A stretch of DNA of 64,000 nt from Leptolyngbyaceae cyanobacterium (GCA_965263355.1 CBDHHL010000032.1:1920001-1984000); one strand, 5' to 3'; positions 18,458-21,256 are shown, numbered from the stretch's first letter. Notes: a model not told the origin generated them from the letters alone. Program-made: numbers and translations.

Positions 18458-19612
18458 ATGTATGAAGACCCAACAGCGATCGTCATTGATAATGGTTCAG
18501 GCTTTATAAAAGCTGGCTTTGCTGGCAAAGATGCTCCTAGCACCATTTTTCCAAGCATCGTTGCTCGACCACAAGACGCGGGAGCAATGCAGCCAAACGA
18601 TGCCTATGTTGGCCATGAAGCCGAGAGTAAGCGAGGGACTTTAGCCATCAATAATCCCATTGAGCATGGCATTGTGACCAATTGGGATGATATGGAGAGG
18701 ATCTGGTACCACACGTTTTATAACGAGCTCAAAATCACTCCCGAAGAACACCCTGTATTGCTCACTGCGTCTCCCTTAACTCCGAAGGAACATCGTGAGC
18801 AGATGGTTCGGATAATGTTCGAATCCTTTAATGTTCCAGCACTTTACATAACAACTGCCCCCGTGCTTGCGCTCTACGCAGCTGGACGCACAACCGGAAT
18901 CGTTGTTGACATCGGCGATGGTGTGACCCACGTAGTCCCCGTTTATGAAGGAGATGTGTTGCCCCATGGCATTATACGCTTAGATTTAGCAGGGAGAAGC
19001 TTGACGGACTATATGGTCAAACTCCTGAATGAAAGGGGGTATAACTTGAGCACCGCTGCAGAGCGAACCATTGTGCAAGACGTCAAAGAGACATTAGCGT
19101 ATACGGCCCTTGATTTTGAACAGGAAATGCAAACAGCAGCATCGAGCAGTAGCCTTGAGAAGAGCTACGAAGTGCCAGATGGTCGAGGGGTTATCACGAT
19201 TGGCAATGAGCGTTTCCGTTGCCCTGAGGCATTGTTTCAACCGGCCTTGAGTGGCATGGAGTCAGCTGGAATCCATGAAGCAGTGTGCAACTCCATTGTG
19301 AAATTGAAAGCTGATAGGTACACTGATGAGAACGGGATTTATAAGGATATGCGGAATAGCTTCTACTCCAACATCCTTATGACGGGTGGTTCAACCATGT
19401 TTCCAGGGATAGCAGATCGTATGCAAAAAGAAGTAGGGGCATTGGCTCCCCCCACTGTGAAAATTAAGATTATTGCCCCTCCAGAGCGTCGATATGGAGG
19501 TTGGAAAGGAGGCTCTATCACGGTTAGTCAGAGTACATTTCGACAAATGTGGATCTCTAAACAAGAGTACGACGAAAGTGGTCCCGGCATCGTCCATCGG
19601 CGAGAGTTTTAG
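18458..19612 (+). CDS. Eukaryote-type actin
   Basis: [80 protein letters not shown] and [16 protein letters not shown]. Intronless, with GGGAG Shine-Dalgarno upstream. Confidence 0.97.
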
Positions 19613-19670
19613 CATGTTACTAGCCGTGAGCATGTAGATGGGATAGTTATTTCAATCATTGTAGTTGGCA

Positions 19671-19706
19671 ATCGCCCTGAGCAAAGACTTGGGGCGATCG
19701 TTTTTT
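19671..19706 (+). terminator. Intrinsic terminator after actin
   Basis: ATCGCCCTGAG-CAAAGA-CTTGGGGCGAT followed by a T-run. Confidence 0.65.
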
Positions 19707-19790
19707 ATTATTCAGCTCTGCAACCAGTCCAACACTTCTTCTATTGCCAGTTGAACAAATGACTAATGGTGAATATAGAAGGCAATCGAT

Positions 19791-19823
19791 AAAAAATGGG
19801 CGGCCTCAATGAATGAAACCGCC
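19791..19823 (-). terminator. Probable intrinsic terminator after tubulin
   Basis: GGCGG...CCGCC stem preceded by AAAAAA on + (T-run on -). Confidence 0.45.
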
Positions 19824-19927
19824 ACAATCTGAGCTTTTAGTAAAGATTTGTTGGTGATAAGGGCTGTTATCCCGTATTCTTCCTAAAGTGGCTTTAGGAA
19901 AGTTCGATTACCATTGTCCGGAGCAAA

Positions 19928-21256
19928 TCACCTCCCTTCACTAACTTGCTCATACTCAGAGATAAGACTTTGGAGATTACGCTCTGCTTCCCTAAACTGC
20001 TGCTCATTCATCCCTTCATAAGTATAAAAATCAAAAAACTCTTTACGACGAAATAGCGTATCGAACTCTTCGAGCACTCTCAGCAATAAGATCTGGATTG
20101 CAGTTGTGTTGTTTGCAAATGTTGCAGAATACTCCAGGGCAAACGTTGGAATCTCACACACTAAATTATGAACACTATCAGAAATCGATGAGCGGATATA
20201 ATCAGCATTTTCCACCTGAATCTTGGACATCTGTTGGTCCACGTCTCTGCTCGACATGTCTCCTCTAAAACAAGTATAGGCTTTGAGTAACTGCCCTTGG
20301 CGTGGATCAGCAGCAGCCAGCATATTGTCTACGTTGAACATTTGTGGAACCAGTTCTGGTAGAGTTCTCGCCTCATACTGACGACTCCCAATAGAGAGGA
20401 TCGGGGCAAGCCCTGGCGTAATAAACTTCAAATCAGGTGATGGTGCTAGATTAGCCACCATATCTTTTAAGGTCCAGCGGTCTGAATTAGCAAGTGGTAG
20501 CCTCAATGGAACAGTCAAACCACTTATCGTTTGTGCCACAGTATAGTTGATGTCGTTCCAGCTTGGATTTTGTATTCCAAGTGAATGACGACAAGTATTG
20601 TAAAGGTGCTCATTGTCGAAACAAAAGGTTAAATCAGCATTTTTTATGAGATGTTCGATCCCAAGTGTCGCGTTGTAAGCACTGGTGATACTTTTGTCAC
20701 TAGCCGAACTACAGCCTAACTGAGTGGACGAGGGGAAGACAGAAAATGTGACAATTGGTTTTTCTGGATATTCTTCCTTTAATTTAGAAAGTAACAGCGC
20801 CCCCATTCCAGAGCCGGTCCCTCCTCCCAAAGTATGGAGAAGCATAAACCCTTGAAAATTTCGATAGTCAATCGTATCAACTTCCCGGCGAACCCCTTCC
20901 AAGACCTGTTCAATATATTCAGTCCCCTGTGTATAAAAGCCTTTGGCCCAGTTTTTAGTTGTTCCTTCTGCTTTCGTGAAAAAGAAGTTGTCGGGTCGAA
21001 AAATTTCTGCAAAAGAACCGCTACCGTACACCTCAGTAGTCAGCCTATGGTCTAAATCGGCAAGTATTGCTCTGGGAATATATGCACCTCCTGGTACTTT
21101 ATGACAAAAAATCTCAACGTGTTCTCGTTGCCGTTCATCATGTCCACGCCATCTGCGTGTGTGGTCAATCTCATGTTCACGAAAAAACATTTCCCAAAAT
21201 TTACACCCAATTCGGTTGCCACCTTGACCAAGGTGAATGGTAATGATCTCGTTCAT
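19928..21256 (-). CDS. Beta-tubulin-like protein (eukaryotic tubulin family, not FtsZ)
   Basis: MNEI start (cf. MREI), GQGGN.IG.KFWE, YIPRAILADL, IFRPDNF, NWAKG.YT.G, signature GGGTGSGMG, YNATL, DNE.LY, AADPRQG, FRRK and EAE.NL..LISEY. The ORF track extends to TTG 21286. Confidence 0.95.
   Translation of the reverse strand: MNEIITIHLGQGGNRIGCKFWEMFFREHEIDHTRRWRGHDERQREHVEIFCHKVPGGAYIPRAILADLDHRLTTEVYGSGSFAEIFRPDNFFFTKAEGTTKNWAKGFYTQGTEYIEQVLEGVRREVDTIDYRNFQGFMLLHTLGGGTGSGMGALLLSKLKEEYPEKPIVTFSVFPSSTQLGCSSASDKSITSAYNATLGIEHLIKNADLTFCFDNEHLYNTCRHSLGIQNPSWNDINYTVAQTISGLTVPLRLPLANSDRWTLKDMVANLAPSPDLKFITPGLAPILSIGSRQYEARTLPELVPQMFNVDNMLAAADPRQGQLLKAYTCFRGDMSSRDVDQQMSKIQVENADYIRSSISDSVHNLVCEIPTFALEYSATFANNTTAIQILLLRVLEEFDTLFRRKEFFDFYTYEGMNEQQFREAERNLQSLISEYEQVSEGR

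Follow-up and report, generated by a model that had tools for sequence, protein, structure and literature searches.

How does a cyanobacterium come to carry, side by side, an actin gene and a tubulin gene that both look eukaryotic, and do the two genes form one system or two? The question is raised by a 64-kb stretch of DNA from a Leptolyngbyaceae cyanobacterium (hereafter the window; all coordinates are window positions), in which a eukaryote-type actin gene and a beta-type tubulin gene converge on a short spacer. An earlier interpretation made from the DNA alone, referred to here as the sequence-only reading, had proposed that the pair is a two-filament module acquired from eukaryotes and kept on a genomic island. 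The evidence described below makes it moderately likely that these are two separate, horizontally acquired cytoskeletal genes, each kept by selection and independently transcribed, whose products would be a self-assembling tubulin and a slowly hydrolysing actin. The locus itself is laid out as follows.

18444..18449, + strand: Shine-Dalgarno-like GGGAGA, 8 nt 5' of the actin ATG (direct sequence reading)
18458..19612, + strand: eukaryote-type actin, 384 aa (Pfam, solved-chain search, alignment, AlphaFold2)
19613-19927: spacer between actin and tubulin, 315 bp
19671..19708, + strand: terminator-like hairpin 3' of the actin gene (hairpin 19671-19698), an 11-pair stem with 6 GC pairs, then a T-run, CGTTTTTTAT
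19789..19823, - strand: terminator-like hairpin 3' of the tubulin gene (hairpin 19823-19799), a 10-pair stem with 6 GC pairs, then a T-run, CATTTTTTAT
19928..21256, - strand: beta-type tubulin, 442 aa, with no tubulin partner in the window (Pfam, AlphaFold2, Foldseek, trees)
21292..21331, - strand: strong hairpin (about 15 pairs, no T-run) some 35 nt upstream of the tubulin start (folding)

This layout bears out the sequence-only reading, which had described two intronless genes lying tail-to-tail 315 bp apart, a Shine-Dalgarno site for the actin and terminator-like hairpins between them: each gene is a single unbroken frame colinear with full-length homologues, GGGAGA stands at 18444-18449, and the spacer holds one hairpin per gene. 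A terminator scan of 17900-21700 found 7 terminator-like sites, against 2.8 +/- 1.6 in shuffled sequences. Because the genes are convergent and have separate terminators, they cannot share a transcript, and each would be transcribed on its own.

The longest open reading frame (ORF) of the tubulin, 19928..21286 on the minus strand, gives 452 aa from a TTG, while the ATG at 21256 gives 442 aa; the latter is taken as the start because all relatives begin with MNEI, and the 442-aa product is identical to record P0003. The protein matches the Pfam families PF00091 Tubulin (163.4 bits) and PF03953 Tubulin_C (65.6 bits), its closest solved chain is the beta-tubulin 6tis_B (E 1.4e-125), and all 60 listed rows of that search are beta chains. 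The AlphaFold2 model is confident (predicted local distance difference test, pLDDT, 89.9; predicted template modelling score, pTM, 0.92), with residues unmodelled only at 183-187, inside an insertion in the T5 loop, and Foldseek matches it to solved beta chains with template modelling (TM) scores of 0.93-0.97, the top 50 matches all being beta. The full-length, beta-type character that the sequence-only reading had assigned to this protein is therefore upheld by its domains and its beta-only matches, but the beta signatures are incomplete, with Asp at the position of K254 and no acidic tail. The main motifs compare as follows, with the window tubulin first and eukaryotic beta-tubulin second.

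T1: GQGGN; GQCGN
T2: DLDHRLTT; DLEPGT
T3: Lys at the N101 position, common to the relative P0014; Asn101
T4: GGGTGSG (within LGGGTGSG); GGGTGSG
T5: insertion; none
H8, K254 position: Asp265; Lys254
M-loop Tyr: kept; present
C-terminus: no acidic tail, ends ...EYEQVSEGR; acidic tail

The likeness to eukaryotic beta-tubulin thus extends to the best sequence and fold matches, Tubulin_C, the GGGTGSG motif, the M-loop Tyr and a place in the same clade of the tree described below, whereas the window tubulin stands apart in its 48% identity, in the exchanges and the insertion listed above, in the loss of the LNxD motif from its T7 loop, in having no alpha-tubulin nearby and in carrying bacterial gene signals.

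The change at the K254 position bears most directly on how such a protein might work. In eukaryotic tubulin, Lys254 of the beta chain keeps the GTP of alpha unhydrolysed, while Glu254 of alpha activates the GTP of beta (PMC13394414). Asp265 of the window tubulin aligns with this position, with the invariant H8 residues Leu and Asn as anchors of the alignment, so that one chain combines a GTP site with a T7 loop that is a candidate activator. Such a chain would have the least that a self-activating homopolymer needs in its sequence. The same combination from one gene can be supposed for OdinTubulin, which is single-copy (PMC13394414, PMC9871819), and more distantly for FtsZ and TubZ; there is no specific sequence relationship to these single-subunit tubulins, however, the window protein being a derived beta-tubulin and not a basal one. 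A search of the window by tblastn with beta-like and alpha-like queries found no second tubulin. The protein is a beta member of a kind elsewhere paired with alpha but here without a partner within 64 kb; it has evolved fast with its GTP pocket kept, and would most likely assemble head to tail alone, like single-subunit tubulins, into GTP-dependent protofilaments without an acidic outer tail. A predicted complex of two tubulin copies with GTP scored 0.00 in a run without controls, which is evidence neither way.

Relatives of the tubulin were sought by a word-indexed search and by an exhaustive representative search, with the same picture from both. The nearest is P0014 (54%, on a 4.1-kb contig), followed by P0017/P0242 (53%), P0019 (53%) and P0022 (50%), and then by eukaryotic beta-tubulins at 48% or less. 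The top match of the representative search, P0245, was set aside because it is a beta-tubulin of the ordinary eukaryotic type, part of which is duplicated internally. P0017/P0242 bears the NCBI name 'MAG: tubulin beta chain [Cyanobacteria bacterium J06592_8]' (MAG, metagenome-assembled genome); 'tubulin beta chain' is an automatic name, so that the gene has been annotated but not thereby studied. A pattern scan of 185,579 species genomes led to four loci, in all four of which a second, alpha-like tubulin gene directly adjoins the first.

L001, 3.1-kb contig of Cyanobacteria bacterium J06592_8: tubulin pair at 563-3073
L002, 72-kb contig of a Methylococcaceae MAG: tubulin pair at 8604-11317
L003, Thiothrix MAG: tubulin pair at 296-3004
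L004, 1.2-Mb contig of a gammaproteobacterial MAG: tubulin pair at 9869-12808

In the Methylococcaceae pair, gene 1 matches alpha-tubulin (E 9e-183) and the beta-like gene has 68% identity to insect beta-tubulin; this pair adjoins a CVNH-domain gene and a TetR/HlyD unit. In J06592_8 (genome G001), to which the short 3.1-kb contig is tentatively binned, the beta-like gene has 82% identity to insect beta-tubulin, and the 384-aa partner that follows it is alpha-like over residues 2-278 only (E 1e-84; branch 1.18) and looks shortened or decaying. No paper on the tandem pairs of L001-L004 was found in the literature searched. Among 401 sampled cyanobacterial species genomes, this tubulin was found in G001 alone; the 158 pattern matches in viral contigs include no tubulin relative, and of 45 loci in metagenomes of the Joint Genome Institute (JGI) none exceeds 51% identity to the window tubulin and none has an actin.

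In a maximum-likelihood (ML) tree (40 rows, LG+G4), the window tubulin and P0014 group with support of 100/100, nested within five cyanobacterial beta-like proteins (99/99). These belong to a 21-row clade (92/98) with P0022, the Methylococcaceae and Thiothrix 'gene 2' and the eukaryotic beta-tubulins, 11 named representatives of which are monophyletic (95/95), and the alpha-like partners fall in a separate clade (100/100). A single clade of all eight bacterial beta-like proteins, a group picked after seeing the data, was not rejected by the approximately unbiased (AU) test (p-AU 0.39). All eight begin with MNEI, as opposed to MREI in eukaryotes, and all eight have a remodelled T7 with Asp or Glu at the K254 position. 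These two traits are common to the window tubulin and the beta members of the pairs at L001, L002 and L003, and the cyanobacterial beta-like proteins also have GQGGN, KGFYT and the loss of the acidic tail; the pairs differ in their adjacent alpha-like gene and in beta-like members that are 68-82% identical to insect beta-tubulin. Since identity to insect beta-tubulin is 82-83% for P0017 and P0022 but 48% for the window tubulin (51% for P0014), the window lineage has evolved very fast, and its terminal branch measures 0.47 above a stem of 0.34. At the level of sequence, these comparisons show that the tubulin belongs to a bacterial beta-type lineage of eukaryotic descent, present in cyanobacteria and Gammaproteobacteria, and they point to spread among bacteria after one entry, because derived traits are shared with the proteobacterial tubulins. 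The acquisition from eukaryotes put forward in the sequence-only reading accordingly holds in so far as both genes are ultimately of eukaryotic type, whereas direct transfer from a eukaryote is not demonstrated for the tubulin. A bolder scenario would have an alpha/beta pair, of a lineage distinct from Prosthecobacter Btub, enter bacteria once and move between cyanobacteria and Gammaproteobacteria, with beta alone retained here as a self-activating protein beside a profilin-independent actin, the two forming a dual cytoskeleton; taken as a whole, this seems improbable.

Bona fide prokaryotic tubulins have been described in print only from Prosthecobacter/Verrucomicrobia and some archaea (PMC9871819, PMC13394414). 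A 2023 review of the family places them in Prosthecobacter and Odinarchaeota only (PMC9871819), and a 2026 survey adds Asgard archaea, Bathyarchaeia and more Verrucomicrobia (PMC13394414); the available portions of both, supplementary trees excluded, make no mention of cyanobacterial or proteobacterial tubulins. In the consulted portions of reviews of the cyanobacterial cytoskeleton and membranes, only FtsZ and MreB, and Btub in general terms, are treated (PMC7766704, PMC9950537), and the 'eukaryotic-like' proteins in the corresponding portion of a Leptothoe genome paper are ankyrin, TPR, LRR and PQQ proteins only (PMC8225149). BtubA/BtubB of Prosthecobacter are, like the window tubulin, bona fide intronless bacterial tubulins thought to be horizontally acquired (PMC13394414, PMC9871819). 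Unlike it, they form a two-gene operon with the kinesin-light-chain-like Bklc/BtubC; the window has a single tubulin without such a neighbour, flanked by an actin and a CmcI-type methyltransferase in place of a BtubA/B operon. In addition, Btub clusters with Asgard AtubA/B (PMC13394414), whereas the clade of the window tubulin adjoins eukaryotic beta-tubulin, a distinction drawn between the published placement of Btub and the present tree.

The actin presents a parallel case. Its match to PF00022 Actin (407.9 bits, cut-off 27, residues 5-382), against 22 bits for MreB_Mbl, below the cut-off of 27, confirms the description in the sequence-only reading of a full-length actin with eukaryotic signatures and not an MreB or ParM. 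Its closest solved chain is the cytoplasmic beta-actin 8oid_C (E 1.4e-172), and it is about 70% identical to eukaryotic actins. The nucleotide-binding motifs (DNGSG; DxGDG..H; GGxTMxPG) are kept as DNGSG 11-15, DIGDGVTH 151-158 and GGSTMFPG 310-317. In actin, Gln137 acts in ATP hydrolysis and the D-loop inserts into the cleft of the next subunit. These canonical F-actin features (Gln137, D-loop and hydrophobic cleft) are not found in the window actin, which has Ala at the catalytic Gln137 position, a D-loop 3 residues shorter and without its Met residues, and Asp, Lys and Thr at the positions of Tyr169, Ile341 and Leu346 in the cleft. It also carries 11 extra residues behind IVKLK, and it ends in RREF where other actins have RKCF. 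The ATP-binding motifs are thus kept, while the classical longitudinal contact is changed on either side, and the protein most likely assembles, without profilin, into stable polymers of a non-canonical kind that hydrolyse slowly. No profilin was found in the window: the best tblastn match of the profilin from genome G157 was noise (E 9.5), and PF00235 was absent from the scanned ORFs. As judged from the alignments, both proteins have remodelled polymer interfaces, and what is said here of their function, expression and polymerisation is inferred.

Eukaryote-type actin is present in 4 of the 401 sampled cyanobacterial genomes, and the window actin is a further one of these scattered cyanobacterial actins.

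G301, 70% identical to the window actin: gene behind an intein-bearing gyrB
G001, 67%: solitary gene flanked by a Na/Ca exchanger and an M50 peptidase
G157, 55%: gene followed by profilin, in the ActM/PfnM arrangement
G071, about 44-45%: divergent copy among sulfatase genes

The G301 gene (L012:5846-10859) directly follows gyrB, whose intein bears a LAGLIDADG domain, and the actin-like gene of G071 (L014:9269-10342), with most of its D-loop region deleted, has sulfatase and sulfatase-maturase genes around it. Those database relatives that bear a name belong to Microcoleus and Roseofilum. In the actin tree, the window protein is a long branch (0.28) in no supported clade, and the cyanobacterial actins stand outside a cluster of 14 named eukaryotic ones (89/90). 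For groups picked after seeing the tree and alignment, a clade of the window actin with actins of the Microcoleus type was not rejected by the AU test (p 0.24), nor was one with the actin linked to profilin (p 0.13); a clade that joins it to the 14 named eukaryotic sequences and no others was rejected (p 0.005). A local 'APVL' motif is common to the window actin and the Microcoleus-type actins. In alignment A3, 6 of the 10 rows that are not eukaryotic (cyanobacterial or unnamed) have another residue at Gln137: the window and the Microcoleus type carry Ala, G001 carries Asn, the G157 actin with its profilin carries Gly and G071 carries Asp, and both eukaryotic rows keep Gln.

The known cyanobacterial actin is ActM of Microcystis aeruginosa PCC 7806, encoded with the profilin PfnM, whose polymers are ribbons and sheets (Guljamow et al., 2012, PMC3254629), and those of the window actin may be comparable. 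The two share the status of a horizontally acquired eukaryote-type actin (PF00022) in a cyanobacterium, and the profilin-linked actin of G157, a genome that we assume to be Microcystis, has the same D-loop shortening of 3 residues and likewise no Gln137. The window actin differs in having no profilin, in its 55% identity to the G157 protein, and in its own 11-aa insert, its RREF C-terminus and its tubulin neighbour.

With so many hallmarks gone, the genes might be decaying relics, drifting without function after their acquisition. The long terminal branches of both proteins, the losses of K254, acidic tail, Gln137 and D-loop features, the truncated alpha-like partner in G001 and a possible tubulin-less variant in the reads (below) would all suit such a fate. 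It is nonetheless quite unlikely, given that both frames are fully open at about 52% (tubulin) and about 30% (actin) divergence from the canonical proteins, and that the tubulin fold is predicted to be confident and complete. Of 56 columns with conservation of at least 90% across 43 other tubulins, the window tubulin retains 54 (96%), as against the majority residue in 160 of the 373 remaining columns (43%), a difference that indicates clear selection on its core; the actin keeps 205 of 248 conserved columns (83%), compared with 60 of 124 elsewhere (48%). In the listed pieces from the strain of a second sample, the two genes show 2 differences over 1,593 bases and the flanks 31 over 2,194, counts that are a weak hint only because contigs drop variants.

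The genes could also owe their place to an assembly chimera or to eukaryotic contamination. Both proteins are recorded on a 3,935,139-bp contig, and the phosphoketolase of the window shares 92-94% identity with its counterparts in marine Leptolyngbya/Leptothoe strains and related MAGs; the host is a marine filamentous Leptolyngbya/Leptothoe-like cyanobacterium. Three public sequencing runs contain the stretch, all as contigs; they come from two samples of one study and possibly include the source sample. Run X1 covers 16000-23000 by a tiling of contigs that show 0 differences and a depth of 14-20, one piece (17629-19830) linking gcvH to the whole actin gene, another (19801-21436) covering the tubulin and further pieces reaching into the CmcI gene. 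No single Logan contig crosses both genes, and the actin-tubulin link in X1 is a 30-base overlap of two contigs, as a chimera would allow. Against this stand the even depth and exact tiling within a 3.9-Mb source contig, the terminators, Shine-Dalgarno site and uninterrupted frames of bacterial type, and the grouping of the tubulin with other bacterial tubulins. Codon usage is host-like: by distance to the rest of the window, the actin ranks 25 and the tubulin 28 among 46 genes, and their GC contents at third codon positions (GC3; 0.475 and 0.391) lie inside the window range of 0.29-0.59. HIP1 palindromes, of which there are 22 in the window against 0.7 expected, are uninformative for the two genes because none falls in 17-23 kb. 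Among 5.8 billion proteins, in which the actin and the tubulin each form a one-member cluster, the closest eukaryotic matches reach about 70% and 48%. Host-like codons, exact tiling at even depth and the lack of any near-identical eukaryotic match make contamination or chimerism very unlikely, indeed the least credible of the explanations considered. The sequence-only reading had favoured selection over contamination and had named, among the grounds for giving this up, coverage breaks or a lack of spanning reads at the flanks and near-identical matches to a co-cultured eukaryote; coverage is even, no such match exists, and the genes are intact, resident and constrained in a cyanobacterial chromosome.

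Granted two genuine genes, they might still be a co-functional two-filament module, brought in or acquired together and serving, for example, as one intracellular scaffold of both polymers. This would account for the tail-to-tail adjacency and for the remodelling of polymer interfaces in both proteins, and G001 likewise has an actin besides its tubulin. However, the G001 genes lie on different contigs, that actin among housekeeping genes, and no actin was found beside the tubulins of L001-L004 and L015-L059 in a tblastn search at E<=1e-10; of the 58 loci read besides the window, only the 8 chosen for their actin gave an actin match. Convergent genes with a terminator each also speak against a module, and different histories are suggested by a tubulin that has a cyanobacterial sister at 54% and an actin whose closest relatives reach 70% and which falls in no supported position of its tree. 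A joint origin of this kind is therefore held to be rather unlikely. Of the module from eukaryotes in the sequence-only reading, there remain two real, intact genes of eukaryotic type, while joint acquisition is not supported, the tubulin relatives being paired with alpha-like genes and the actin relatives standing alone or with profilin. The same adjacent pair, for which a survey had been suggested, recurs in none of the 58 other loci. The sequence-only reading knew of no characterised bacterial locus with both an actin and a tubulin, and none was found in the literature searched. Among the tubulin loci readable so far, the adjacency is unique; it would reflect co-location in a variable region near a tRNA and an integrase, not a co-inherited operon, and co-occurrence in one genome is read as shared exposure or niche, though a functional link may exist.

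Several points weigh against the reading of two independent, self-sufficient polymers. An acidic residue at the K254 position is not proof of catalysis, because the T7 loop has lost LNxD; T2 is also changed, T3 has N101K and T5 has an insertion at the longitudinal face, and any of these could impair GTP sensing or assembly. The term orphan holds for 64 kb, and an alpha-like partner could be encoded elsewhere in the genome. For the actin, whose AlphaFold2 model is only moderately confident (pLDDT 69), the altered D-loop and cleft could mean that polymerisation is lost and not just modified. Each of the only two cyanobacterial genomes known to carry this tubulin encodes an actin as well, compared with 4/401 in the background sample, and this co-occurrence argues for some link between the genes. 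Finally, the joint in one X1 contig, between 19845 and 21599, skips 1,753 bp, exactly the tubulin; if the joint is real, the tubulin is dispensable in part of the population. That contig has low depth (4.5 vs about 19, with 30 bases on one side), and no microhomology was found at the joint. In run X3, from the second sample, a contig over the CmcI gene turns to unrelated sequence left of 21327, and the tubulin borders may be structurally polymorphic.

Eukaryote-type actin in bacteria has been known mainly from one Microcystis system, and the present find widens the known traffic of cytoskeletal genes from eukaryotes to bacteria by a beta-type tubulin lineage in cyanobacteria and Gammaproteobacteria that is without description in the literature searched. 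Some members of this lineage are 82-83% identical to animal beta-tubulin, and one genome has a diverged orphan beside an actin. The locus thus offers natural experiments on the fate of a tubulin that has lost its alpha partner, chaperones and regulators, on whether the change from Lys254 to an acid can make beta-tubulin a self-sufficient GTPase polymer, and on the evolution of actin polymer contacts without actin-binding proteins.

The surroundings of the two genes are bacterial, as the following features show.

10083..10154, + strand: tRNA-Thr (anticodon CGT), possible integration site (ARAGORN; Rfam tRNA 75.1 bits)
10320..11474, + strand: tyrosine integrase adjoining the tRNA-Thr (PF00589 Phage_integrase and PF12167 Arm-DNA-bind_2)
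16538-17314, - strand: LplA/B-type lipoyl ligase, left flank (Pfam)
17361-17954, - strand: glycine-cleavage H protein (GcvH), left flank (Pfam)
21588..29511, - strand: nine genes co-directional with the tubulin and upstream of it (Pfam)

Bacterial genes on either side and an upstream tRNA-Thr followed by an integrase had been part of the sequence-only reading, and they are as described, from the LplA/B-type ligase and GcvH on one side to CmcI-type methyltransferases on the other. Its 'genomic island' fares less well: the tRNA and integrase are present, but defined ends were not found in the window, nor was a second copy of the tRNA-Thr 3' end (an attR-like repeat), and GC and codon use at the two genes are not deviant.

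The upstream nine comprise two CmcI-type methyltransferases, a cupin, S-adenosylmethionine (SAM) methyltransferases, a Rieske/VanA oxygenase, an unassigned 115-aa ORF, a pyridoxal phosphate (PLP) decarboxylase and a DUF3326 gene, and the tubulin is the last in this row of ten minus-strand co-directional genes. The terminator scan and the sequence of the spacer gave no strong terminator between the tubulin and the last gene of the cluster, and read-through from the CmcI cluster into the tubulin may be possible. The 331-nt spacer folds with z = -2.0, and its hairpin of about 15 pairs (21292-21331) could be a processing, stabilising or regulatory element. This arrangement raises a further possibility, namely that the tubulin, and perhaps the actin, is a ligand-binding decoy, store or immunity protein that binds a small molecule made by the cell, its gene ending a biosynthetic or modifying cluster. 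Marine filamentous cyanobacteria make tubulin- and actin-binding metabolites, a point in its favour. It is nonetheless unlikely, with no polyketide synthase (PKS), nonribosomal peptide synthetase (NRPS) or known toxin gene among the scanned window ORFs of at least 90 aa, with cyanobacteria lacking a native tubulin or actin that would need protection, and with a spacer and strong hairpin set between the tubulin and the cluster; conservation, moreover, follows the nucleotide pocket and the core of the fold and does not single out a drug site. The roles floated in the sequence-only reading, as a decoy or sponge for cytoskeleton-targeting toxins or as an effector against eukaryotic grazers or hosts, would be speculative.

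Within the enzyme cluster (21599-27136) there are apparently recent internal duplications, at 25476-25775 vs 26837-27136 (96%), 23866-24165 vs 26090-26389 (85%) and 21599-21696 vs 22866-22963 (73%), and the cluster looks mosaic and rearranging. The other genes of the window are cyanobacterial by Pfam and include Lpa1/Rep27 (DUF3493), the phosphoketolase, AAA_35/WD40 genes, PDDEXK_2 transposases and a Tax-like chemotaxis cluster, and an Rfam scan of the window returned tRNA only. Synteny with genomes G041 and G267, whose phosphoketolases are 88% and 86% identical, is lost except for the phosphoketolase itself and, in G267, one neighbour. At 35580-38219, two to three tandem units of a PD-(D/E)XK-family transposase contain 300-nt repeats at 100% identity, each unit being preceded by runs of a 12-nt repeat (CTGCTCTATGCC-like).

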